Source: Lytechinus pictus
Lineage: Eukaryota
Assembly: GCF_037042905.1 (NCBI RefSeq)
Contig: NC_087254.1
Coordinates: forward strand, 19,592,001 to 19,656,000
DNA: 64,000 nucleotides
Direction of reading: 5' to 3'
In this document: positions 33,901 through 60,590 of the stretch, piece after piece
Numbering within the stretch: the first letter of the stretch is position 1
Layout of the letters: the number at the start of each line of letters is the position of its first letter
Made by a program: the position numbers and the translations under genes
Notes under the pieces: generated by a model
What the model was told of the DNA's origin: nothing
The model's input: only the letters and a program-made list of their open reading frames with translations
The model's database searches: none

Positions 33901-36900
33901 GATTACTTGTTTATTCTATTATCTTTCAAAGCCATCTAAGCATGACAAAATGTTACTCTTCTCATTCTTCTGCGCGATTTGCGTGCTGTCGCCAAGCGAA
34001 AGACAACGAAATCAAGATGGCGACGTAAACACTGTGGCAACTTCTTCCTGACTTTTCATAACATTTTTCTGTTTTTTTAAATGAATTCTTGTTCAACAAT
34101 GAAATCAATATCATAGAAATGTCGGAAATGAAGTTATATCCCATGTATATGATTTAGGGCTAGATCTTTTAGAAGTAATATAGTATTTGGAAAAAGGTCG
34201 GATTTTTCCTTTAAGATTTACTTACAAGAGTTGGACGAAGAGGGTGTAAAGTGTTGTCTTATCACAACATTGAAATGTACATCTCAGAACAAATAGTTCA
34301 ATTTTTGTAAAGTTATTATATTGAATATGGACTGTTATTAGAAATGAAAATTATATATAATTATGTAAATTGCTTGGGATAAAGTATACTTCCTTTTTTA
34401 TGAAATTATATTACGGAATGGTGTTATAACTTAGTAAAGAGGAAGGATCTTGTGAAAGTGATTATGTTACACGGGAAGAAAACCCGCTTGGTCAGTAGAG
34501 ATCGATTGTTTTGAGGTCATTGGTCAAGCTACTCAGTGAGGAGAGCGATCAGTCAGAGAGTCCTGTAGGATCCAGATAATTTAGATCTCAATCCTGTCGA
34601 GGTATGTTGATTGATATGTGCTATTTTATAAGAGAAGAATATCTATGTTTTGGAATATATCATCTCTAAATCATGAACTAGAATTAGAGCATTGAATCGT
34701 AATTTTTCTGTTATGTCAAGGATACCTACTACGTGGCATGTTACGTAACAATGAATGTGTGTATATATGTATCGGGTACCTATCGATTCAAGATGGTATC
34801 ACTCTTTCCTTTTTGTCTTGGAATTGCCGAATTGGAGGACTATATTTATGTAGTTGTATTTCTTTAACGTGTATTTAAATAGACGATGAGTAGAATTTAT
34901 CAATGTGAATAATTCGTAAACCGGGAGATTTGGTAAATGGTAGCCTCAAGGTTAGGCAAGGTCAAATCGTTTCGTACTGATGGTTTCGATTAATTATCGA
35001 TTTAACTTAATATTTTCGCCAGTTCAGTTATATATTTTAAAATGATACGTGATCAATTGATATTATACAATCATATATATTAAGGATTGGTGTATCGTTT
35101 ATTTATTTAGGAGTTCGAATGTTCATTTGTTGATGGAACTAGCTGGATTGTGATGATTTCTGGGTTTTCTACGAAGGTACGAAAAGTTATGAATTTTCCT
35201 TGTAATTTAATGACTGTGTTGTTCGAAGTGATATCTTATAATATTAGGATAAGAATGATTGGTGAATTTGATTTTTTTCCTTCGAGCATTGAAGGCTTTA
35301 ATGATAACTTTTTCATTAGATCACGGTGTTTGAATTAATAATTCTATTTTTTGTCAATATGATGTTAAGAACATTTACAGTTAATCGATTCTAATTTCCC
35401 TGTAAGATGTATAGAAACCTAAAAGGTATTATGATATAGTTGAATAGTTACTCATGCAAATGTATGTTATTATTTATTTTAGATTGCAGTGTTGGGTACC
35501 GGAATCTGACCCTAGAAAGTGATTGTTTTGGTCCTTGGTATGGTTTTTAACCTGTATCTGCCCTAGTCGGGTGAGTCAAGATGGCCGTACTTAAAAGATT
35601 GATACGTGCAGCATTTTTTACCAAAATTAACGGTGTTTTGTGATCGATTACGAAAGTTTGAATTTGTTGACATATATAAAAGATTGATATATTTGGAAGA
35701 ATGTTTCCAAAGTTTGCTATATAAATTGTGAATTCATATATTTTACAATGAAAGAAACTATTGCAAAAGAGGTCGATTCAAGCTTAGAAACATATAATAT
35801 CTATGATATTTGTGACTATTTAATTATCGATAGTTGTATTAATAACTTGTTATAAATATTATTACTTTTCGCATATTATCGAGCGCAGACTGATATCTAG
35901 TTATATAATTGCAGATCATTAAAAAAATAAAAATAAACGCAATGTAGTGGCCTGCTCAGTGATCGACAGGTGTACTCGTAATATTAAGAGTTTATATTCT
36001 GTCTTGACATGTAAATGCTTTATTCATGCTGTAATGATATTTTGAACATTATACTCATGTTCTTTATTGTTTCTCTCTTTTCTGCTTGCAGAGGTTTTTT
36101 TTCCAATTTGTTATATACTGAACAACTGTTGTGCTCAAGTGGGAAATTAAATTCCGCTCACAACCTACAACTCTCGTCGTATCGTGTCTTGTGTTCTGGA
36201 GTGTCCTGACAACTTCCCCCAAAACCCAGAATACTACAAGTGGTGTCAGAAGTGGGATAGAACTTGAGCATCGATAGACGGCAACTAAGAAGCAAGAAAA
36301 GAAGAACATCATTAGACGGAAACCAAGAAGCAAGAAAGAAAACCTCCGACTTTGGTTGTATGGTAAACGTAGTGTAATTTTACTGTGGAAGAAAATACTA
36401 CTTTTGAAACAAATGCCATAGTTTTTTTTCCTAATTGTAGACAGCAGGTTCCATTTGTTTGAATCATACTTACTGAGTGAGGATGCCAAGGAACACTAAC
36501 TCAGAGGATGATGCTCCAAGGGGAGCTACGGCCCAGCCCTTAGCTCCAGGTCTAGCTGAAATGATGGCAGCATTGACGGGGGCTTTCCAAAGTCTGCAAT
36601 CACCGAGGGGTTTACCAGCGGTAAAGCTGAGTAAGTTTGGTGGGTTCCCCCGGAAACATGGAGACCCGACAATCAATGAATGGCTCCAAGAATTTGATGA
36701 ATATTGTAGCTATTATCAACTGAAGAGGAAAGAAGAGGCTCAGGTACTATTGACTCATCTGACAGATTCGGCCAAAGACGAAGCGAGGCTGTATGACTCT
36801 ACGGTCAGGGAGGACAGTACGGCATTGAAGCAGGCTTTGAAGTCTCGTTATGGCCTAAAGGAGACTGTACAACCATTGACCACGGAATTACATGCCAGAG

Positions 36901-39900
36901 TACAAAGGCCAGGTGAAACGTTGGCAGATTTCAGTAGTGCACTTATTCGCTTGCACGATCGAATGGAAGCTGCAGCGACAGGTGATGAGCGATCAGCATT
37001 GATCATGCTGAGGAACAATACATTGAAAGAACGGTTTGTAACTGGTGTGAGAGACAAACAGATTCAGAGGGAGATTCGACGTATCATGTTTAGCACTGAG
37101 GATAAATCCTTTATTGATATGCGAAGAGAAGTTCTGCGAATGTTCCAGGATGAGGACACAGTTTCTCCTAAAGCTAGTATTAGGGAATGTGAAGTAGAGG
37201 CGGCGAGAGCATCGGTAAATACTGAGGATCAGACAATTCAAAACATGAAAAGTGAGATCACCGAGTTAAAGGAGACTTTGAAAGAGGTTGTTCAAGTGAT
37301 GAAAGGCATGAAAAGCAATCCTAAACAAAACTCACCACCTTTTTGCTACAACTGTAATAAGAAAGGACACTTGAAAAGAGAATGTCGCTCACCTCCTCTC
37401 TGCTATGGATGTAAGCAAGTAGGTCACATGAGAAAGGACTGCCCCAATGGGTCAGGTACACGACAAAATCCAAGAAGTCCTCAAGGAGCAGACATGATGC
37501 CTCAAGAAGAACAAGTTCAAGGAAATGTCAGAAGCTTGTCAGCTGGTGGGAATGAGAAAACACTCAGCTTGGTATCATCGTGTCCAAAGTCAGTAGTTGG
37601 AATAGCAGGGATACCCACAGGCTGTATTCTAGACACAGGAGCAGAAGCTAGTCTTATTCCGGTATCCTACTATGAAGGGAAACTGAGGGAAGTTATTGGT
37701 CCTCTTGATGGTAGTGGCGATGGTATTAGAGTTGTTGGGATCCATGATAGCGTAGTACCGGTGGTAGGATACATCCATACCACCATGACCCTGAATGGCG
37801 AATCCTTTGAAGTAGGTTTTCTGGTTGTTAATGACGAGTTGCAAACCAAGAAGAAGACAGACTATCCTGTTCTCCTCGGCTGCAATGCACTTTGGCCAGT
37901 AGTCAAGAAGAAAGTCTACAAAGATGATGATGAGAACTGGAAACTTGTTGAGGTGGCTCTCAAGTTGTCACGTGAGAACCAAGAGGTTGCTACCCCAAAC
38001 ACTCTCTTGACCTCCAAAGAAAGGAGAATCCTCCCGCCGTTGACAGTTCATCGAGTAGAATGCCAGATGAATGATGCACCTTCCTTTGAGTATACTGAGA
38101 AGAGTATTCTGATAGGCACAGACTGTCAGGTCAACAACATCAATCCTCTAGTAGGGAAAGGACTGGATGTCTATGACACTTGTTTGGAAGCTGACGGACA
38201 AGAACTTCAAGTAACTGTTGCAAATAGGTCCACTCAACAATTAGAGATCACTCAGGGCATGGTTCTTGCATCGGCTACTCAAGTGAAGGAGCGTGATGAA
38301 ATAATTATGCAGGAGAAAAACGGACTTATCGAAGTTGACATCATGAAGGTGATGGTTGAGGCAGGAGCCAATGTAGCTGTCATTGAGAGAGATACTCAAA
38401 TCCAATCTCATCAAGAAGGTGTTGATCACCTTTGCATGGATGGGAAGAGTGTGAAATTACCAGTTGGAGTGAAGATTGAACATCTCTCAGGTGAAGAAGC
38501 TGATACTATTGCTAACCTCCTGTCGAATCATAAGTCAACTTTTGCCGAGAGTGATATGGATCTTGGAAACTGTACCGCAATACCACATCAGATCCGGACA
38601 TCAGAAGGACCACCAATCCGACTGCCCTATCGTCGAATCCCCCCAAACCATATCCCAGAGTTAAAGGCACTCCTTCAAGAAATGTTGGATAAAGGAATTA
38701 TCCAACAATCGACCAGCCCTTATGCGAGCCCGGTGGTGCCAGTCCGCAAGAAAGATGGGACGATGAGAGTTTGCATTGACTATCGTCAGCTGAACGCCAG
38801 GACGGTTCGGGACTCATTCCCCTTGCCAAGAATAGATGAAACACTGGAAGTCCTCGGAGGAGCTAAGTTCTTTAGCTCTCTTGACCTTGCTAACGGCTAT
38901 TTTCAGATAGCAATGGATGAACGTTCGATCGAGAAGACAGCTTTTAGAGTCCCCTGGGGCTTGTTTGAATTTCTACGTATGCCCCAAGGCTTGGTGAATA
39001 GCCCAAGTACGTTCCAGAGAGTCATGGAGCTGGTGTTAGGCGATCTAAATTTATCCCAGTTAGTGATTTACCTTGATGACATACTTGTTTTCTCAAGTAC
39101 CCTGGAAGAACATTTAACCAGATTGGAAGCAGTCTTCAGACGTCTAACAGAGTATGGCCTGAAATTAAAGGGAAAGAAATGTCAGTTCCTTCAACGAAAA
39201 GTCCACCATCTTGGACATGTTGTCACTGCCTCAGGAATATCAGTCGACCCAAAGAAGATTGACACAATCAAAACCTGGTCTGTACCGAAGACTGCCACTG
39301 AGTTGAGGTCTTTCCTTGGACTGGCCTCATATTATCGCCGGTTTGTTCTGGGATTCGCAAGCATTGCTGCTCCCTTGCATGCTTTGCTTGGTAATTGTCT
39401 TCCACCTTCTAAGAAATCAAAGAAGAGACATGGCAACATGGCTGGTAGACTGAAAGAATTTGTCTGGTCAGAGAAGGCAGACGAGGCATTCCGTAAGCTT
39501 AAAGACGCCTTGACGTCTACACCTGTTCTTGGATATCCACAGTTTGGAAAGAAATTTGTAGTTGAGATTGACGCCTCGCTAAAAGGACTGGGTGCTTGCC
39601 TTTCTCAACATGGAGATGATGGGAAACTTCACCCTGTGGTGTACGCAAGTCGGGGGCTACGCAATGCAGAAAGAAGTTATCCCGATTACTCTAGCTTCAA
39701 GTTAGAGCTACTGGGCTTGAAATGGGCGATTGCTGACAAATTCCGGGAATATCTCATAGGAAGCCAAGTTGAAGTTCTCACAGATCACAACCCATTGGCT
39801 CATCTGGAAACAGCAAAACTAGGGGCAACCGAACAGAGATGGGTCGCTCAACTAGCCCCGTTCGACCTCCAGATTAAGTATAGACCAGGAAGAACCAATA

Positions 39901-42900
39901 AGTGTGCAGACGCTCTCAGTCGTCGACCTATGGTTTGTGATGCCATGGACACCTTACAGCCCGTTGTTGAACAAGTACTTCAGTGTTCAGTAATGCCAAT
40001 AGAAGTAGAGCAAGAAATAAACGTCAATCGATTGGACATGGATGTAATGGCACCTGGTGTGTTCCCTTCCTACGATCTTAAACAGTTATCAGATCTGCAA
40101 CAGAATGACAATGGTTTGAGTGTCATCTTCAAGATGCGGAAAGCTGGATGGAAACCAGGAGAACCAACACCAGATGACAGTCCTGAAGTAAAGAGTTGGC
40201 TTCGAGAGTGGAAACAACTCGTAGAGAAGGATCAAGTGCTATTTCGCCGAATCGAGGTGCAGGGGGATGTTGTTGACCAACTTCTCATTCCAGCTAGCAT
40301 CAGGCATACTATCCTACAGGCTACACATGAAGGATGGGGCCATCAAGGTGTGACTCGGACACTCGGATTGTTACGCACAAGATGCTTTTGGCCTGGTCTT
40401 CAAGAGGACGTTCGACGACATATAAAGAAATGCTTCAACTGCACAGTGGTAAAGGCGCCTACTCCTACAGTGAAGACGCCGATGAGACACCTTCTTGCCT
40501 TCAGACCTTTAGAAGTCCTTGCAATTGATTTCCTTAAGATGGATCGTGGAAAAGGAGGCTACGAGGACATACTCGTCATGTCAGATGTGTACACCAAGTA
40601 TGCTCAAGCGATCCCATGCAAAGACCAAACTGCCCAGACGGTAGCAAGAGCCCTCAGAGACAACTGGTTTGTCCACCATGGAATACCCCACAGACTCCAT
40701 TCGGACCAAGGAAGAGATTTCGAAGGAAACCTTGTCCAAGAACTATGTCGGTTGTATGGTGTCAAGAAGTCAAGGACCACCCCATACCACCCAGAGGGGA
40801 ATGGACAGGTTGAACGTTTTAATAGAACGTTGTGTAGCATGATTCGATCGATGGATCCCTCAGAGAGAAGAAAATGGCCAGAGACAATATCTCATCTAGT
40901 GTTCAATTATAACACTACTCCACATCGATCGACTGGATTCTCCCCATACAGGTTGATGTATGGAAGGGAACCATCTCTACCCCTCGATCAGCTGTTGTCT
41001 CGTACCCGACGGTCATGGGATGAGGATTTCGTAGAGACGCAAGCTGCTGCTCTAAGCAAGATGAACGATCTCGTTGAGAAGAATCTCAAGGCCCAAGCAG
41101 AGGAGAATAAAGCCAAGCATGATAGACGGGTACAGTCCTCTCCCCTTGTAATTGGGCAGAGCGTATTGCTGAAGAGGATGGCATTCTCAACAAGACATAA
41201 GTTGAAAGATAAATACTTTAGGGAACCTTATGTCGTTGTTGACATCAACAATGAAGGCGACGTCTACAGTATCCGTCCACTCCATGGAGGAACACTCAAG
41301 ACTGTTAACCGAAAACTACTGATAGCTGATCCACGGACCCAGGAGCTCTGTGACTTGGCAGATAGCCATCCTAATCACATTCGTCAGTCAAGTGATGAAA
41401 CTGGAAGTCTTTCCTCGGAGAGTGAAACTGGTGAATGCAATAGTGATGATGACGGGGACGATTGGTTCCAATACCATCCTCCATCTTTCAATACTGAAGA
41501 GAATGCACGACCAGAAAACTCTCAGAATCTACGTCGGTCAAGTAGAGTTACTAAGGGCGTCCATAGAAATCCTTATCACTTACCGAGATCAACACTCTCG
41601 AATTGAAAAAGAAATATATAAATACACATGCGTATCTCAGATGAGTTGTTGTCATTTTTCTATTTTTTTCTTGTATATGAAGCCTTGTCAGCATTTTTCT
41701 ATTCACCTCCTAATTGATATTTTATTCAAACTTAGTGGAAGCTATTGAATATTTATAACTTATGTGTCAAAGTATTATAATTCAATTGCTGATATCATTG
41801 AGGACAATAAAGTATACTTCCTTTTTTATGAAATTATATTACGGAATGGTGTTATAACTTAGTAAAGAGGAAGGATCTTGTGAAAGTGATTATGTTACGC
41901 GGGAAGAAAACCCGCTTGGTCAGTAGAGATCGATTGTTTTGAGGTCATTGGTCAAGCTACTCAGTGAGGAGAGCGATCAGTCAGAGAGTCCTGTAGGATC
42001 CAGATAATTTAGATCTCAATCCTGTCGAGGTATGTTGATTGATATGTGCTATTTTATAAGAGAAGAATATCTATGTTTTGGAATATATCATCTCTAAATC
42101 ATGAACTAGAATTAGAGCATTGAATCGTAATTTTTCTGTTATGTCAAGGATACCTACTACGTGGCATGTTACGTAACAATGAATGTGTGTATATATGTAT
42201 CGGGTACCTATCGATTCAAGATGGTATCACTCTTTCCTTTTTGTCTTGGAATTGCCGAATTGGAGGACTATATTTATGTAGTTGTATTTCTTTAACGTGT
42301 ATTTAAATAGACGATGAGTAGAATTTATCAATGTGAATAATTCGTAAACCGGGAGATTTGGTAAATGGTAGCCTCAAGGTTAGGCAAGGTCAAATCGTTT
42401 CGTACTGATGGTTTCGATTAATTATCGATTTAACTTAATATTTTCGCCAGTTCAGTTATATATTTTAGATTTTAAAATGATACGTGATCAATTGATATTA
42501 TACAATCATATATATTAAGGATTGGTGTATCGTTTATTTATTTAGGAGTTCGAATGTTCATTTGTTGATGGAACTAGCTGGATTGTGATGATTTCTGGGT
42601 TTTCTACGAAGGTACGAAAAGTTATGAATTTTCCTTGTAATTTAATGACTGTGTTGTTCGAAGTGATATCTTATAATATTAGGATAAGAATGATTGGTGA
42701 ATTTGATTTTTTTCCTTCGAGCATTGAAGGCTTTAATGATAACTTTTTCATTAGATCACGGTGTTTGAATTAATAATTCTATTTTTTGTCAATATGATGT
42801 TAAGAACATTTACAGTTAATCGATTCTAATTTCCCTGTAAGATGTATAGAAACCTAAAAGGTATTATGATATAGTTGAATAGTTACTCATGCAAATGTAT

Positions 42901-45900
42901 GTTATTATTTATTTTAGATTGCAGTGTTGGGTACCGGAATCTGACCCTAGAAAGTGATTGTTTTGGTCCTTGGTATGGTTTTTAACCTGTATCTGCCCTA
43001 GTCGGGTGAGTCAAGATGGCCGTACTTAAAAGATTGATACGTGCAGCATTTTTTACCAAAATTAACGGTGTTTTGTGATCGATTACGAAAGTTTGAATTT
43101 GTTGACATATATAAAAGATTGATATATTTGGAAGAATGTTTCCAAAGTTTGCTATATAAATTGTGAATTCATATATTTTACAATGAAAGAAACTATTGCA
43201 AAAGAGGTCGATTTAAGCTTAGAAACATATAATATCTATGATATTTGTGACTATTTAATTATCGATAGTTGTATTAATAACTTGTTATAAATATTATTAC
43301 TTTTCGCATATTATCGAGCGCAGACTGATATCTAGTTATATAATTGCAGATCATTAAAAAAATAAAAATAAACGCAATGTAGTGGCCTGCTCAGTGATCG
43401 ACAGGTGTACTCGTAATATTAAGAGTTTATATTCTGTCTTGACATGTAAATGCTTTATTCATGCTGTAATGATATTTTGAACATTATACTCATGTTCTTT
43501 ATTGTTTCTCTCTTTTCTGCTTGCAGAGGTTTTTTTTCCAATTTGTTATATACTGAACAACTGTTGTGCTCAAGTGGGAAATTAAATTCCGCTCACAACC
43601 TACAACTCTCGTCGTATCGTGTCTTGTGTTCTGGAGTGTCCTGACAACTTCCCCCAAAACCCAGAATACTACAAGTGGTGTCAGAAGTGGGATAGAACTT
43701 GAGCATCGATAGACGGCAACTAAGAAGCAAGAAAAGAAGAACATCATTAGACGGAAACCAAGAAGCAAGAAAGAAAACCTCCGACTTTGGTTGTATGGTA
43801 AACGTAGTGTAATTTTACTGTGGAAGAAAATACTACTTTTGAAACAAATGCCATAGTTTTTTTTCCTAATTGTAGACAGCAGGTTCCATTTGTTTGAATC
43901 ATACTTACTGAGTGAGGATGCCAAGGAACACTAACTCAGAGGATGATGCTCCAAGGGGAGCTACGGCCCAGCCCTTAGCTCCAGGTCTAGCTGAAATGAT
44001 GGCAGCATTGACGGGGGCTTTCCAAAGTCTGCAATCACCGAGGGGTTTACCAGCGGTAAAGCTGAGTAAGTTTGGTGGGTTCCCCCGGAAACATGGAGAC
44101 CCGACAATCAATGAATGGCTCCAAGAATTTGATGAATATTGTAGCTATTATCAACTGAAGAGGAAAGAAGAGGCTCAGGTACTATTGACTCATCTGACAG
44201 ATTCGGCCAAAGACGAAGCGAGGCTGTATGACTCTACGGTCAGGGAGGACAGTACGGCATTGAAGCAGGCTTTGAAGTCTCGTTATGGCCTAAAGGAGAC
44301 TGTACAACCATTGACCACGGAATTACATGCCAGAGTACAAAGGCCAGGTGAAACGTTGGCAGATTTCAGTAGTGCACTTATTCGCTTGCACGATCGAATG
44401 GAAGCTGCAGCGACAGGTGATGAGCGATCAGCATTGATCATGCTGAGGAACAATACATTGAAAGAACGGTTTGTAACTGGTGTGAGAGACAAACAGATTC
44501 AGAGGGAGATTCGACGTATCATGTTTAGCACTGAGGATAAATCCTTTATTGATATGCGAAGAGAAGTTCTGCGAATGTTCCAGGATGAGGACACAGTTTC
44601 TCCTAAAGCTAGTATTAGGGAATGTGAAGTAGAGGCGGCGAGAGCATCGGTAAATACTGAGGATCAGACAATTCAAAACATGAAAAGTGAGATCACCGAG
44701 TTAAAGGAGACTTTGAAAGAGGTTGTTCAAGTGATGAAAGGCATGAAAAGCAATCCTAAACAAAACTCACCACCTTTTTGCTACAACTGTAATAAGAAAG
44801 GACACTTGAAAAGAGAATGTCGCTCACCTCCTCTCTGCTATGGATGTAAGCAAGTAGGTCACATGAGAAAGGACTGCCCCAATGGGTCAGGTACACGACA
44901 AAATCCAAGAAGTCCTCAAGGAGCAGACATGATGCCTCAAGAAGAACAAGTTCAAGGAAATGTCAGAAGCTTGTCAGCTGGTGGGAATGAGAAAACACTC
45001 AGCTTGGTATCATCGTGTCCAAAGTCAGTAGTTGGAATAGCAGGGGTACCCACAGGCTGTATTCTAGACACAGGAGCAGAAGCTAGTCTTATTCCGGTAT
45101 CCTACTATGAAGGGAAACTGAGGGAAGTTATTGGTCCTCTTGATGGTAGTGGCGATGGTATTAGAGTTGTTGGGATCCATGATAGCGTAGTACCGGTGGT
45201 AGGATACATCCATACCACCATGACCCTGAATGGCGAATCCTTTGAAGTAGGTTTTCTGGTTGTTAATGACGAGTTGCAAACCAAGAAGAAGACAGACTAT
45301 CCTGTTCTCCTCGGCTGCAATGCACTTTGGCCAGTAGTCAAGAAGAAAGTCTACAAAGATGATGATGAGAACTGGAAACTTGTTGAGGTGGCTCTCAAGT
45401 TGTCACGTGAGAACCGAGAGGTTGCTACCCCAAACACTCTCTTGACCTCCAAAGAAAGGAGAATCCTCCCGCCGTTGACAGTTCATCGAGTAGAATACCA
45501 GATGAATGATGCACCTTCCTTTGAGTATACTGAGAAGAGTATTCTGATAGGCACAGACTGTCAGGTCAACAACATCAATCCTCTAGTAGGGAAAGGACTG
45601 GATGTCTATGACACTTGTTTGGAAGCTGACGGACAAGAACTTCAAGTAACTGTTGCAAATAGGTCCACTCAACAATTAGAGATCACTCAGGGCATGGTTC
45701 TTGCATCGGCTACCCAAAGCTAAGTTCAAACCCCGGGGTTCAAACACCAAACACAAAATGAAACGGGTGGGACTAGTCTTTGCTGTGTTGGCAGGCAGGA
45801 TCAGGATCGATCGCCAATCAAATTGGTAAGTGCTACATACTCGTTCCGATTTCCCCTGTAAATCAAAGCCAGGAAATTGGCCATTATTTTTCATACGTTA

Positions 45901-54542: not shown

Positions 54543-55407
54543 TTTAGGAAATTGGCAAAGCCGATCTCCTAATATTTATATAAAAGTTAGGTCCTACCTT
54601 AATTCTTGCTCGCCAGAAGATAGAATGGGGTCCAGCCGCTCAGATAAATTGCACAAATCCGTGAATAGAAATATATACACTTCACAATTTCAAATACAGT
54701 AGATAAAGGGACAGATGTCACAAAATGTCTCGCGAAGTAATGAGCTCATTAAATATGCAGAGAATATAGACTTCGAATGAGTGGAAGTGACGGTAAGGAA
54801 TAAGATTGGAAAATGCAGAGAAATAATTAAGTATAAGTTGATCCTCCACAAGATTTGATTCAATCCTCACTAGCAGCTGGATGAGATGGTCAGCATGAGT
54901 GGACAGGACGAAGGCAGAGAGTAGAGTGATGATGTGGTAGAGAAAACAAGTTGTTTTTACCAACATCAGAAAAGATGAGACAAAGAAATAAGCGTCAAAA
55001 AGGGAGGCAAAACAAAGTTGAAAAGAACAAAGAAGAGAGAAGCAGACTGTGAGAAAAACAAACATGCCAGCATCTCTGTAGTGATGTTATATACCTGCAA
55101 GTTCATTGCAATAAACAAGGGACAATGAAAGGATGTTTGCTCCAAGTCTAAGAACAAAAGAAAGGTTGTTTCTCAATATAAGAATGTGTTTGCCAAGTAG
55201 ATTTGGACAGAAAATGAGTTGGCTTGCTCTGTGAATGTACAGTATTGTAGTACATACACATGGCGTGAACAAGTGAGAATATATGAAATTGGAAATAAAA
55301 GAAAGAATTTATATACATATACAGAATGTTGAAATATAAATGAAAATATATACAAGGAAAGAATATATAGATGTAGATATATAAAAAGATATAGTCAAGT
55401 CACTACA
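54543..55407 (-). repeat. 3' LTR of the CsRn1-like element
   Basis: Begins TGTAGTGAC on the minus strand, just after the PPT AGGGGGGAG (55412-55420). Confidence 0.9.
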
Positions 55408-55538
55408 GTAGCTCCCCCCTAGATTTGTACCGAATAGAAATGTAGTAACAAATCGACAAGGGAAAGTAAAAGGGAACTTGGCTATATAAAACAAGCAAAT
55501 AAAAGGAGTGGAAACATCAGTGAATTTTGAGAAATGTT

Positions 55539-58500
55539 TCAACCGTCTCCGAAAAATTGAACGTACTTGGCAGGAAACCTGACATGGCGACCAGAACGGG
55601 TCTTACGAATTTCGGGAGGCATATGCTTGTCATCAGGATCCCCTGCCAAGTCCGTGGAGTTGGATTGTTGATGAACTTGGTCGGGTGGATCTTGATGATG
55701 AAATGGAGTGGTAGCCTCCTGCTCGATGAAAGCCGGTTTCAGTCTGTCGACACTGACATTTTCATGTTTACCATTATAATCTATGGTAAAATACTTGTCA
55801 GTGCGACGGATGACTCGGAAGGGTCCTCTGTATGGAGGCTGCAGTGGCTTTTTAACAGCATCATCTCTTAGAAAGATGTGAGATGAAGAATGCAGTTCAG
55901 GATGTACCTGCGTTCGAGTTTGCTGTTTTCTAGTAGGAGTGGGATGTAATTCCCGCATCATTCTCTTTAGTCTGTGGGCATAGTTAGATGGGTCATCGGC
56001 AGAATCAATTTGTGAAGGAGCTACAAACTGTGCAGGTAGAGTGACAGTAGTCCCAAACACAAGTTCTGCAGCAGAGCATCCAATGTCCGCCTTGATTGCT
56101 GTGCGTATACCTAGCAAGACTAAAGGGAGTGACTCAGTCCAACGGACCTTGTTATGAGCTTTGAGAGAGGCTTTAAGTTGGCGATGAAAACGCTCCACTA
56201 AACCATTTGCGGCAGGATGGTATGCTGTTGTGCGGATGCGTTTAGTGCCAAGGAGGTTGGTGAGTGAAAGGAAAAGTGCTGACTCAAATTGCCTACCTTT
56301 GTCTGTTGTGATGGTAGTAGGTGCGCCAAACACTGCTACCCATCTGGCCACAAATGCTCGTGCTACCGTCTCCGCAGTGATGTCTGGGATAGGAATAGCT
56401 TCTGGCCATCTGGTGTAGCGATCAACACAAGTAAGAAGATAATTGTTACCCTCTGATGAAGGAAGCGGGCCAACAAGATCAATGTGCACATGAGAGAAGC
56501 GTGCATCAGGTGAAGTGAAAGTACCAAGTGGTGCTTTGGTGTGCCGATGTACTTTACACTTTTGACATTCGAGGCATGTTTTGGCCCATTTTCTTACATC
56601 AGCGTTGATGCTAGGCCAAACAAAGCGCTCTGTAATGAGCTTTTGAGTAGCTCTGATTCCTGGATGAGAAAGTCCATGAAGGGAATCAAAGATAGCTCTT
56701 CTATGTTTGACTGGTACCAAAGGCCTGGCAGTACCAGTTGATATATCGCACAGAATGGTAGTGGTAGAACCTGGGAGAGCAATTGACTTGAGTTGAAGTG
56801 AGGAGTCTTTCACCTCAGTTTCATCTTCCTGATCTTTTGCAATGGCCGCAAAGTCTATGATTGAGGAAGAATCAACTCTGTCAATATACAGACGAGAGAG
56901 GGCGTCTGCTGCTGTGTTCTCCTTACCTGAAATGTGCTGTATATCAGAAGTGAACTGTGAAATGAAATCGAGTTGTCGGATTTCACGTGGCGAATGCCTA
57001 TCCGGTTTCGATTTGAGTGCATGTGTAAGAGGTTTGTGGTCAGTGTAGATAGTAAATGACCTACCTTCAAGAAGATGGCGAAAGTGCTTGATACCCAGAT
57101 ATGCTGCAAGCAACTCCCTACCAAAAGTGCTGTATTTGGTTTCAGCGGGTTGTAACCTCTTAGAGAAGAAAGCCAGAGGTTGCCAAACTCCATCTACTCG
57201 TTGTTGGATAGCTCCCCCAACTCCGACGTCAGAAGCGTCGACTAGTAGGCACAAGGGAACATCAGTGCGAGGGTGCACAAGAACAGTAGAGTTAGCCAAT
57301 TGATCTTTAGCATGATTGAAAGCAAGAAGCTCTTTCTCTCCAAGATCAATTGGCATGTTCTTTTTTGTTCTGTTTTTCAACAGATCAGTCAGTGGTTGCA
57401 GCACCTCTGCACAACGAGGAATGAATCGCCTGTAGAAGTTTATCAATCCCAGGAATTCTCGAAGTTTGGTGAGTGACGTAGGCGCGGGAAAATCACGGAT
57501 GATTTTCACTTTGTCGCTAAGAGGGCGGATTCCGGTGTTGTCCACCATATGTCCGAGAAAAGATAGCGATGAAGCACCAAACTGACATTTCGAGGGATTG
57601 ACGATGATGCCATACTCCTGCAGGCGATCGAAAAGCTGACGGAGATGTGTCACATGTTCATCCTTAGAGGAACTGGCTACCAGTATATCATCCAGATAAA
57701 CATAGACAAATGGGAGGCCGCGAATGACGGTGTCCATCAATCGCTGGAATGTTTGTGCTGCATTCCTAAGGCCGAATGGCATTCGAACAAATTCGAATAA
57801 GCCGAATGGAGTGGTCACGGCAGTCTTGTGAATGTCGCTAGGCTCGACTGGGATCTGATGATATGCCCTAACGAGATCAATTTTAGAAAAAATTGTCTTA
57901 CCTGCAAGAGTTAAAGAGAAATCTTGCAAGTGTGGGATAGGGTATCGATCCGGGACTGTGCGAGCGTTGAGCAAGCGATAATCACCACAAGGCCGCCAGT
58001 CCCCTGGCGTTTTCTTGGGAACCATGTGCAATGGACTTGACCAGTTGCTCTCAGATTGTCGGATAATGCCAAGTTCAAGCATGTGCTCGAACTCTGCCTG
58101 GGCAATTCTCTGACGATCTGGGGCAAGTCGACGAGGGCGCGCTGCCGCGGGCGGGCCTCGAGTTGGGATGTGATGCGTGGTAGTATGTTTCACTTCTGAG
58201 TGCTTGTAAACCGGTCGTGTGATATCCGGATACTGACGGAGAATGGAGTGAAATCGCTCCGATATGTCATGTTGAACATACATCGGGCTAATAGTACCTG
58301 TAAATGAACCACATCCCTGGACTGTTAGAGTGGTTTTGGTGTCTATCAATCGGCGGTGTTTGATATCCACCAACAGTCCAAATTGGTCAAGAAAATCGGC
58401 ACCCAAAATCGGCGTAGGTATGTCTGTCACAACAAATATCCAGCGGAAAACACGCCGTAAACCGAGATCAAGTGTGAAAGACTTTTGTCCGAGAGTCTTG

Positions 58501-58712
58501 ATTGGTGATCGATTTACAGCCTGTAGTTGGATATTTGTCGCGTCAACCCTAGCCGGTTTTCCCAATTTTGAATGAGGGAAAATGCTCACCTCAGCACCTG
58601 TGTCGACGAGATAGCGTGTACCAGTGTACTTATCGTTGACAAAGAAAAGGCGACTGGGTTGGGTGCTGCCAAGGGGGTTAGTCGCCGCTATTCCTTGGCG
58701 GGGTCGTTTCCC
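55539..58712 (-). CDS. Pol polyprotein (protease-RT-RNase H-integrase with GPY/F module), expressed by -1 frameshift from gag
   Basis: LVDTGAEVS; [23 protein letters not shown]; RNase H DAS/ELLA/TDH/ADALSR; integrase H..SHPG..C..C, HIDLVGP, TTDKG, VERFH; PYRGPF. No in-frame ATG at the start; overlaps the gag end in the -1 frame. Confidence 0.93.
58649..58712 (-). promoter_or_regulatory. -1 programmed ribosomal frameshift signal: G GGA AAC plus H-type pseudoknot
   Basis: Minus strand reads GGGAAAC-GACCCC-[GCCAAGG]-AATAGC-{GGCGACT}-AACCC-[CCTTGGC]-AGCACCCAACCC-{AGTCGCC}: two interleaved perfect 7-bp stems. The heptamer is in the gag reading frame. Confidence 0.88.
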
Positions 58713-59584
58713 TGGGCCTGTCCTGCTGAGAAAGAGCAAGGACTAATGCACTTTTGAGCACTGCTCCCATATTTCCAGTGATACCAGCACTGGGCACCTG
58801 CATGCTGTTCACTGCGATGCGGGCTGCGCGAAACTGATTGTGGGCGCTTAATCGAGTCCTTCGACTTGCGCTGTCGACTGCGACCTCTCTCGCGGTTATC
58901 CAGCATGGAGCAGGTTAATGCTCGAACTTGCATTGTGAGCTGGTCCACCTGTGCAGAGAGCTGGTCGACTTTAGTTTCGTGCGTGGGGAGTGGAGGGGGT
59001 TGTGATGGCGCCAACTTAGATTGAATGTTGGATATAGTTGGGCCGGCAACTTCAACAATTTTGTCCGCAAGCGCCGCTAAGTCCACCAAACTCACCCCAT
59101 CGCTTGATGCGGCTAGGATGACCTGCACGTTGGTGGGCAAGCGTTGCAAAAATAATTGCCGAAAAATTGAATCCTCCATTGTGCTCGTCCCCATCAATTG
59201 CTGCATCCGCCGGAGGAGTTGCGACGGCGACTTGTCTCCGAGCTCCTCTCCTGACAGCAGCCGATTGAGGCGCGTCTGCTCGGAGACGGTCGTTCGCTTG
59301 ACCAGTGCAGCTTTTAATTTTTGATAGGGGTTGTCACCCGGGATAGCAGTAATGATATCCCTCACCTCCATAGCTACCTCTTGTTGTAGTGAGGCAACTA
59401 CATAATTGAATTTAGTGATTTCGGCGGTAATACCCTTTGTGTGAAATTGGGCCTCCACCTGAACGAACCAAATTTCTGGGTCATTTGCCCAGAATGGTGG
59501 GAGCTTAATGCTCACCGGAGCAATAGAGGGTGATACTGGAGAAAGATTAGATTCAGGAGTAGAGGAAACATTAGGAGTAGTCAT
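58688..59584 (-). CDS. Gag protein, CsRn1-type, 298 aa
   Basis: [23 protein letters not shown]-terminal motif, [13 protein letters not shown], and a CHCC finger CWYH-x9-C-x3-C. Confidence 0.92.
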
Positions 59585-59705
59585 GTTGTAGAGTAAAGAA
59601 AAAAAATTGAGAAGTAGAAAGGAAACAAAAATAGTGAAGTGAGAAGCAAAAATAGCGAAGTGAGAGAAATGAATAAAGGGCGATAAAAGAAAATTAAGGA
59701 TTCAG

Positions 59706-59724
59706 AATCACGTCGGGGTCACCA
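59706..59724 (-). other. Primer-binding site complementary to tRNA-Trp
   Basis: Minus strand TGGTGACCCCGACGTGATT is complementary to the tRNA-Trp 3' end AATCACGTCGGGGTCA-CCA. Confidence 0.92.
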
Positions 59725-59725
59725 G

Positions 59726-60590
59726 TTTAGGAAATTGGCAAAGCCGATCTCCTAATATTTATATAAAAGTTAGGTCCTACCTTAATTCTTGCTCGCCAGA
59801 AGATAGAATGGGGTCCAGCCGCTCAGATAAATTGCACAAATCCGTGAATAGAAATATATACACTTCACAATTTCAAATACAGTAGATAAAGGGACAGATG
59901 TCACAAAATGTCTCGCGAAGTAATGAGCTCATTAAATATGCAGAGAATATAGACTTCGAATGAGTGGAAGTGACGGTAAGGAATAAGATTGGAAAATGCA
60001 GAGAAATAATTAAGTATAAGTTGATCCTCCACAAGATTTGATTCAATCCTCACTAGCAGCTGGATGAGATGGTCAGCATGAGTGGACAGGACGAAGGCAG
60101 AGAGTAGAGTGATGATGTGGTAGAGAAAACAAGTTGTTTTTACCAACATCAGAAAAGATGAGACAAAGAAATAAGCGTCAAAAAGGGAGGCAAAACAAAG
60201 TTGAAAAGAACAAAGAAGAGAGAAGCAGACTGTGAGAAAAACAAACATGCCAGCATCTCTGTAGTGATGTTATATACCTGCAAGTTCATTGCAATAAACA
60301 AGGGACAATGAAAGGATGTTTGCTCCAAGTCTAAGAACAAAAGAAAGGTTGTTTCTCAATATAAGAATGTGTTTGCCAAGTAGATTTGGACAGAAAATGA
60401 GTTGGCTTGCTCTGTGAATGTACAGTATTGTAGTACATACACATGGCGTGAACAAGTGAGAATATATGAAATTGGAAATAAAAGAAAGAATTTATATACA
60501 TATACAGAATGTTGAAATATAAATGAAAATATATAAAAGGAAAGAATATATAGATGTAGATATATAAAAAGATATAGTCAAGTCACTACA
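59726..60590 (-). repeat. 5' LTR of the CsRn1-like element
   Basis: TGTAGTGAC...TTTCCTAAA, then 1 nt, then the PBS. Candidate TATA box (TATATAA) at ~60270-60276. Confidence 0.9.

Follow-up and report, generated by a model that had tools for sequence, protein, structure and literature searches.

Three spliceosomal introns in the long terminal repeat of a sea-urchin Ty3/Gypsy element, and their recurrent loss in related families

The window, by which we mean the whole stretch of 64,000 nt from Lytechinus pictus that was analysed (NC_087254.1, positions 19,592,001 to 19,656,000), contains a Ty3/Gypsy retrotransposon whose long terminal repeat (LTR) carries three spliceosomal introns that are removed by host splicing. 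We use “window family” for the Ty3/Gypsy family of the element with its 5′ LTR at 34179-36238, which has the following features:

34179-36238 (+): 5′ LTR, 2060 nt, termini TATAGTA...TACTACA; identical ends are found in full copies elsewhere, with 4-bp target duplications
34179-34601 (+): first part of the LTR, likely the U3 promoter and the start of R (exon 1); present in the intron-less copy, and where we infer the U3/R boundary
34492-34496 (+): TCAGT, which we read as initiator-like, the candidate transcription start; two contigs of run X7 that align from 34491 give a weak hint
34602-35110 (+): intron 1, 509 nt, GTATGT...TAG; exactly missing from both LTRs of an element on contig C16, retained in X1 and X7 contigs
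35111-35176 (+): exon 2, 66 nt, non-coding; from the sequence and the comparison with C16
35177-35482 (+): intron 2, 306 nt, GTACGA...TAG; exactly missing from C16, GT..AG joint in an X1 contig of depth 237
35483-35570 (+): exon 3, 88 nt, non-coding; from the sequence and the comparison with C16
35571-36091 (+): intron 3, 521 nt, GTGAGT...CAG; exactly missing from C16, X1 contig joint of depth 263, two raw X19 reads, a loose end in X7
36092-36238 (+): last exon with ATTAAA (36146-36151), CA sites and a GU-rich tract, likely the end of R and U5; signal in 29/29 copies reaching it
36241-36258 (+): primer-binding site (PBS), 2 nt past the LTR, from the sequence; we take it to match tRNA-Leu
36483-41606 (+): single gag-pol frame with zinc knuckles, protease motif, reverse transcriptase (RT), RNase H and integrase; open from 36477, 1709 aa
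41807-43673 (+): second LTR, with introns at 42030-42545, 42612-42917 and 43006-43526, and without the first 200 nt and the polypurine tract
43674-45717 (+): second internal copy, truncated (tandem element); 2044 nt aligned, 4 mismatches

The domains that Pfam identifies in the gag-pol product (zf-CCHC at 290-304, RVT_1 at 756-915, RNase H at 997-1129 and integrase at 1271-1487), together with a protease motif, LDTG, found by reading, follow the Ty3/Gypsy order of Gag, protease, RT, RNase H and integrase. The structural marks of the group are also present, namely direct LTRs, a PBS, a purine-rich tract and, in other copies, a 4-bp target-site duplication. The closest named protein is XP_011664529.1 of S. 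purpuratus (90% across residues 720-1150, the RT region), with further relatives in sea cucumber (66%) and in fish and frogs (48-56%). Instead of TG...CA, the termini of the window family are TA...CA in 28/28 loci that have the 5′ end (30 loci in all), while the LTRs of most sister families start with TG; the TA...CA ends are a variant and do not exclude the family from Ty3/Gypsy. Membership of the Penelope-like elements, which have a GIY-YIG endonuclease and a pseudo-LTR, does not fit, as integrase and true LTRs are present. The window copy is truncated at its far end, and its second LTR, which differs from the first by 2 substitutions and one 7-nt indel, has lost the polypurine tract: at 41790-41810 the internal region and the second LTR are joined at a 3-nt microhomology, with the tract and the first 200 LTR nucleotides gone (~220 nt). 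Further along the window, at 54543-60025, another direct-repeat pair encloses minus-strand frames of 1067 and 337 aa and is probably a second retroelement.

A sequence-only reading of this DNA had proposed a multi-exon spliced unit within an LTR of ~2 kb. The LTR is 2060 nt long, and its start, given as 34491, is in fact at 34179, 312 nt earlier. The splice motifs lie where they had been placed (GAG/GTATGT at 34602, AG at 35110, the 66-nt exon 35111-35176 followed by AAG/GTACGA, and AG at 35482 and 36091, the slash marking the exon end), as does the ATTAAA at 36146-36151, and all the motifs, ATTAAA included, are kept in the second LTR at +7428/+7435. The exons are also GC-richer than the introns, as it had noted (42.7% over 412 nt, counted from 34491, vs 28.9% over 1336 nt; Fisher p=3e-7). 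For intron 3 its alternative donor, CGG/GTGAGT (35571), proved correct, and its main choice, TTG/GTATGG (35538), is retained in the spliced C16 copy and hence unused. The AATAAA near 35926, offered as an alternative poly(A) signal, fails for want of conservation: it occurs in 5/30 LTR copies within ~320 nt of the LTR end, compared to the invariable ATTAAA of the last exon. Scoring of the splice sites with matrices from 13 introns of other families gave a divided answer, with the best donor reached by just 3/500 shuffles and the best acceptor by 94/500; acceptor 1 (35110) has a poor score. Since only the best donor beats the shuffles, motif strength alone is insufficient, and the proof of the introns is the genomic intron-less copy.

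The window LTR found 45 candidates in the genome, of which 40, the ceiling for each of our genome searches, were scored and yielded 48 matches; two of the places, both on C16, match just four pieces of the LTR. In the C16 element introns 34602-35110, 35177-35482 and 35571-36091 are gone to the base from both LTRs (3/3), which is the GT...AG removal expected of spliceosomal (U2-type) introns. The two LTRs are 728 nt each with 1 differing site, and the element is flanked by a 4-bp target duplication, TTTC; this duplication of its own, together with 78 mismatches to the window copy in the internal region, makes it a separate insertion. No internal gap exceeds 1 nt, and the loss is therefore limited to the LTR. 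The coding frame of the C16 element is split in two, and its LTR, a natural intron-less one, contains frames of only 4-36 codons downstream of the candidate start. We also considered a fourth intron in the leader after the PBS (36363-36440, 78 nt), the motifs of which are found in 5/5 copies, and rejected it as the segment is present in the C16 copy; in four other intron-less elements the leader gaps are all <=12 nt. Over the window family, 1/16 informative insertions is intron-less, counting as one the 12 segmental duplicates of a single solo LTR (L002-L013, with identical flanks, on C10, C12, C14, C16 and three small contigs).

RNA evidence comes from X1, a set of contigs from a presumed RNA run, from the raw RNA runs X19, X20 and X21, of which ~6% each was read, and from X5, X6, X7 and X12, which belong to a second species; the RNA joints have 23-30 letters on the short side, below the 31 of the alignment tool. 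X1 contains the GT..AG joint over intron 2 with 28 letters on the short side (depth 237) and a joint over intron 3 with 23 letters (depth 263), alongside intron-retaining contigs with depths of 104 and 90; intron 1 is retained. The X1 variants match an intron-bearing solo LTR at 20/20 sites tested (20 of the 25 LTR rows listed, those outside an A-rich stretch), and the letters past junction 3 likewise fit the intron-bearing solo LTR allele and not C16. The joints therefore reflect splicing and not transcription of an intron-less copy. The transcript enters this solo LTR by read-through from the upstream flank and not from the element's own promoter, and where the LTR ends its depth is 572, then 91, then 6; one X1 contig exits the solo LTR at the GT after 34243. 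Among the raw runs, junction 3 is crossed by 2/76 X19 reads, exon 2 is joined to exon 3 in 2/10 X20 reads, with some letters differing, and no joint was seen in the 44 X21 reads. In the second species a loose end of one X7 contig runs from the last base of exon 3 (35570) into the beginning of exon 4, and X5, X6 and X12 gave no exon 3-exon 4 joint among the matches listed. Two of the proposed junctions, 35176^35483 and 35570^36092, are thus seen in RNA, in few reads and with short sides, and none was seen for 34601^35111 among the matches listed in 8 runs, with intron 1 retained in X7 contigs as well as in X1. The runs showed no pile-up of starts or ends in the LTR and no poly(A) ends. Two other features of the runs deserve mention. 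Contigs from X6, X7 and X12 begin at 35405-35407, as the X5 variant table implies for that run, where a pyrimidine tract and AG immediately precede and might serve as another acceptor, lengthening exon 3. At 34334-34684, X21 reads occur in both mate orientations, more of them opposite to the junction reads, possibly owing to antisense transcription of some copy.

To see how far LTR introns extend, we fetched 40 of 100 RT matches, representing ~21 further families. The search for precisely intron-less LTR copies that the sequence-only reading had recommended succeeded in the window family and also in seven sister families (F2, F3, F4, F5, F6, F7 and F101), where exact or near-exact GT-AG losses are found; in a few of them one or two letters differ in a G/T run at the last junction. 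Intron-less copies account for 2/10 informative insertions in F2, 5/14 in F5 and 10/29 in F7, and, among fetched elements only, for 1/3 in F3, 1/2 in F6 and 11/18 in F4, the last figure being biased by an intron-less query; F101 has 2 clear and 1 probable among 8 insertions. Large deletions without GT-AG ends also occur in F7 (49, 870 and 1264 nt). Twelve families could be judged, either through a search for copies or because they showed two LTR forms: 8 proved positive, with F8 a probable case and F107 an ambiguous one. The other two yielded nothing clear, with 0 intron-less copies among 6 matches for L099 and no clear one among 38 candidates for L115, where two split copies lay outside the comparison. 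F8 was not counted because two letters differ at the junction, and F107 because its short LTRs are equally explained by a 66-nt repeat. In F107 (L107, L142, L143) one copy of the repeat ends at a GTAAGC donor and the other close to the end of the LTR, and the 226-nt LTRs are without everything between the two repeat copies.

The sister families are 55-74% identical in RT. In an RT tree of 41 rows, all from the genome of the window, seven of the eight positive families fall in one clade (100/97) together with F8, and F101 (55% RT identity) lies outside. Together the eight families have 16 introns of 254-1396 nt, 1-3 per LTR, and the last exon, of 68-147 nt, carries a poly(A) signal A(A/T)TAAA in 8/8. 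Leave-one-family-out scoring puts 14/16 true donors among the three best of 68-147 GT sites. The similar contexts of the last junction across families suggest one ancestral intron. Several ideas of how the arrangement might work were tried and set aside. Regeneration of an intron from an exon copy, i.e. an intron ending in a copy of the preceding exon, is contradicted by identical runs of 0-2 nt and no internal repeats in 8/8 families, a 66-nt repeat of this kind being found only in the distant F107. A hairpin hiding the poly(A) signal is contradicted by folding z-scores of +0.4 to +1.4 in 7/8 folds and -0.9 in one, with the signal mostly unpaired in 7/8. No promoter motif is common to all eight families: one that we take to be E2F-like matched only F2 and F3, reversed in F4, and the other allele of the window family. 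Mosaic breakpoints as a guide to the U3/R boundary offered too few sites.

Loss of the introns is all or none. In the multi-intron families every intron is lost in 31/31 intron-less insertions, as judged by alignment or, for the most diverged copies, by LTR length. One F4 element (L055/L056) shows exon skipping in both LTRs, the first donor being joined exactly to the last acceptor with removal of 767 nt, and must therefore have had an intron-bearing parent. In exon-only trees copies with and without introns intermingle at both old and young levels, and a single intron-less clade is rejected in 4/4 families (AU p: F7 2e-79, F4 3e-53, F5 5e-4, F2 5e-34). Since the intron-less copies are polyphyletic in all four families tested, intron loss is recurrent, with LTR recombination as a process that could contribute to the polyphyly. 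Several intron-less elements have long open frames, and there are small intron-less clusters (L132+L133, L187+L188, L189+L190), so intron-less copies may not be strict dead ends.

Apart from one F101 element, the two-LTR intron-less elements examined have both LTRs without the same introns, with 0-7 differences in 576-728 nt. The discordant F101 element (L191/L192; G000:C1:33116464-33124555) has introns in its 3′ LTR but none in its 5′ LTR, and is flanked by matching ATAT repeats. The two LTRs are identical in exon 1, all 9 exon-1 differences being common to both; their last exons differ at 3 sites, that of the spliced 5′ LTR being of another type. This fits either a transfer from one co-packaged RNA to another or conversion by spliced cDNA. 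For the first strand, transfer between molecules is possible, and premature transfer appears in a title cited in the same source (PMC6088434).

Several lines bear on whether the introns are maintained. In the comparison of splice sites with intron bodies that had been proposed, the cores have 0/99 lineage-shared substitutions vs 289/5422 (p=0.01). A general rule that exons are more conserved than introns has to be discarded, being true of the window family alone (p=2e-8) and of none of the four others tested. If the intron-less share is equated with the loss per cycle, and loss is one-way over 50 cycles, neutral retention at 6, 20 and 35% loss per cycle would be 4e-2, 1e-5 and 4e-10, respectively. 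As loss is frequent and one-way, long persistence of the introns would need selection.

Some new copies lose the introns in reverse transcription, and retention of the introns by the lineage is likely due to unspliced RNA being the usual template and to intron-less offspring being poor parents. The fuller account, which we think on balance probable, has a long R holding the introns, a spliced and an unspliced RNA pool of which the unspliced one usually serves as template, and selection that works against intron-less offspring. Transcription would start near 34492, and R, of ~1.7 kb, would run to cleavage after the ATTAAA at 36146 and contain all three introns, leaving a U5 of ~70 nt. RNA from the 5′ LTR would then be either spliced, as an LTR-contained RNA of ~340 nt or as a spliced leader on gag-pol mRNA, or left unspliced. 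An intron-bearing LTR could be rebuilt by copying unspliced RNA, or by early strand transfer within the last exon onto an unspliced 3′ R, and copying of fully spliced RNA would give two intron-less LTRs. By analogy, the likeliest benefit would be that promoter-proximal, host-like introns aid transcription, export or escape from silencing of intron-less DNA. Searching for the TASOR domain returned blank, as did the control search.

We place the introns in R rather than U3 with fair confidence, given an initiator-like motif 110 nt upstream of donor 1 and, in the window family, 15/100 changes before the tract of the last acceptor vs 4/150 before donor 1. The introns may instead lie in U3, with transcription starting just past the last acceptor and only the 3′ LTR being spliced, an arrangement we think unlikely. 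The acceptor would then define a terminal exon and activate the 3′ poly(A) signal only, a simple answer to the problem of 5′ vs 3′ polyadenylation, and spliced offspring would lose promoter sequence in the introns. The poly(A) signal lies 18-20 nt past the last acceptor in F3, F4, F6 and F101, the all-or-none loss in 31/31 insertions fits a single spliced end, and a pooled R-vs-U3 constraint test over five families, which was null (p=0.36), is compatible with it. However, the region upstream of the last acceptor is the fastest changing in the window family, the initiator-like motif and weak contig starts lie near 34491, the discordant F101 element is better explained (in this one case) by a spliced R-U5 donor, and the maize analogues discussed below start upstream of their introns (PMC13192763).

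A second and less probable alternative is that the LTR mainly yields a short non-coding RNA, spliced, polyadenylated and wholly contained within it, which throttles the full-length RNA or acts in trans, the introns being kept for this self-limiting role and not to raise expression. The last acceptor and the conserved ATTAAA do make a complete terminal exon, the intron-less LTR has nothing beyond its 4-36-codon frames downstream of the candidate start, X1 depth drops at the end of the solo LTR (572 to 91 to 6), and in maize 77.1% of LTR-retrotransposon transcripts are LTR-contained (PMC13192763). On its own, though, this leaves the failure of intron-less copies to take over unexplained, and the runs contain no poly(A) ends; in part it is compatible with the long-R account.

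More doubtful again is that the splice sites are a neutral by-product, for example of captured host sequence, with a few long-lived intron-bearing masters seeding both forms without selection. Exon and intron divergence do not differ in 4/5 families and intron-less copies are common in F4 and F7, as this would have it, but it sits poorly with the invariant splice cores of the active lineage (0/99, p=0.01), with introns and similar last-junction contexts in eight families just 55-74% identical in RT, and with the presence of both forms at old and young levels of each family tree. Loss mainly after insertion, by conversion with spliced cDNA rather than in retrotransposition, is very improbable, for although the F101 element with its spliced 5′ and unspliced 3′ LTR between matching ATAT repeats would suit it, the near-identical LTRs of the other two-LTR elements, both missing the same introns, are the outcome of reverse-transcribing one spliced RNA.

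LTR introns at the RNA level are already in print for maize, where LTR retrotransposons give spliced, three-exon, LTR-contained RNAs (Gooden et al., bioRxiv 2026 preprint; PMC13192763); the preprint, which cites Panda and Slotkin 2020, presents these as the first evidence of such introns. The likeness is close, with canonical LTR introns, often two long ones around a short middle exon, a non-coding product, and LTR-initiated RNAs with the three-exon layout of the R reading preferred here (PMC13192763). Maize differs in being a plant, with RNA-level evidence and mapped start sites, and the main text of the preprint has 0 matches for intronless, intron loss, lack introns or genomic copies (PMC13192763). 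The sea urchin offers an animal, genomic retro-copies, recurrent all-or-none loss and retention across families, with a start that is a candidate. Our literature searches, which also overlooked PMC13192763, found no report of recurrent intron-less genomic LTR copies.

A similar picture emerges for Penelope/Chlamys elements, where a 5′-UTR intron in or at the pseudo-LTR, described in the source as of unknown significance, is a terminal-repeat leader intron kept through retrotransposition, though these elements have a GIY-YIG endonuclease and no true LTR (PMC8557442). The sea-urchin elements, by comparison, are integrase-type LTR elements; they have a PBS and 1-3 introns (254-1396 nt), which are often lost exactly. 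In foamy virus the major splice donor lies upstream of the LTR poly(A) signal, at both ends, as does the splice signal here, and U1 binding suppresses 5′ polyadenylation (PMC3694450). The sea-urchin LTRs differ in holding complete introns, with the last acceptor before the poly(A) signal. Foamy virus splice acceptors are outside the LTR. Partial splicing, with separate pools for translation and copying, is a likeness shared with Ogre, where the intron lies between coding regions (PMC6317226), and BARE1, where splicing yields a Gag-only RNA (PMC3735527); neither is described in those sources as an LTR intron. Introners, elements that become introns of host genes, are distinct from LTR introns (PMC12130899).

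New here are a three-intron LTR established by base-exact comparison of genomic copies, junctions of two of the introns in RNA, and, across eight animal families, repeated all-or-none loss alongside long retention. Introns are not expected to survive reverse transcription, and human cells recognise retroelements by their lack of introns: intron-less DNA is silenced there by HUSH, whose authors state that escape would require long non-coding introns in retroelements (PMC8770142). HUSH, being a human system, is an analogy for the benefit of introns in sea-urchin LTRs and not a tested cause (PMC8770142). Speculatively, a whole lineage of animal Gypsy elements may have equipped its LTR with a host-like first transcription unit of several introns and come to depend on it, with the 6-60% of intron-less offspring per round silenced or unexpressed, and with the introns, as a disguise from surveillance of intron-less cDNA, selected since the families split. 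LTR “subfamilies” that repeat libraries separate as long and short can be splice forms, and the X1 data suggest that host transcripts can acquire complete exons and a poly(A) signal from solo LTRs. One genome provides, in eight families, matched young elements with and without LTR introns, and the comparison of these natural copies makes testable how introns in a retroelement can survive copying through RNA and what advantage they bring to it.
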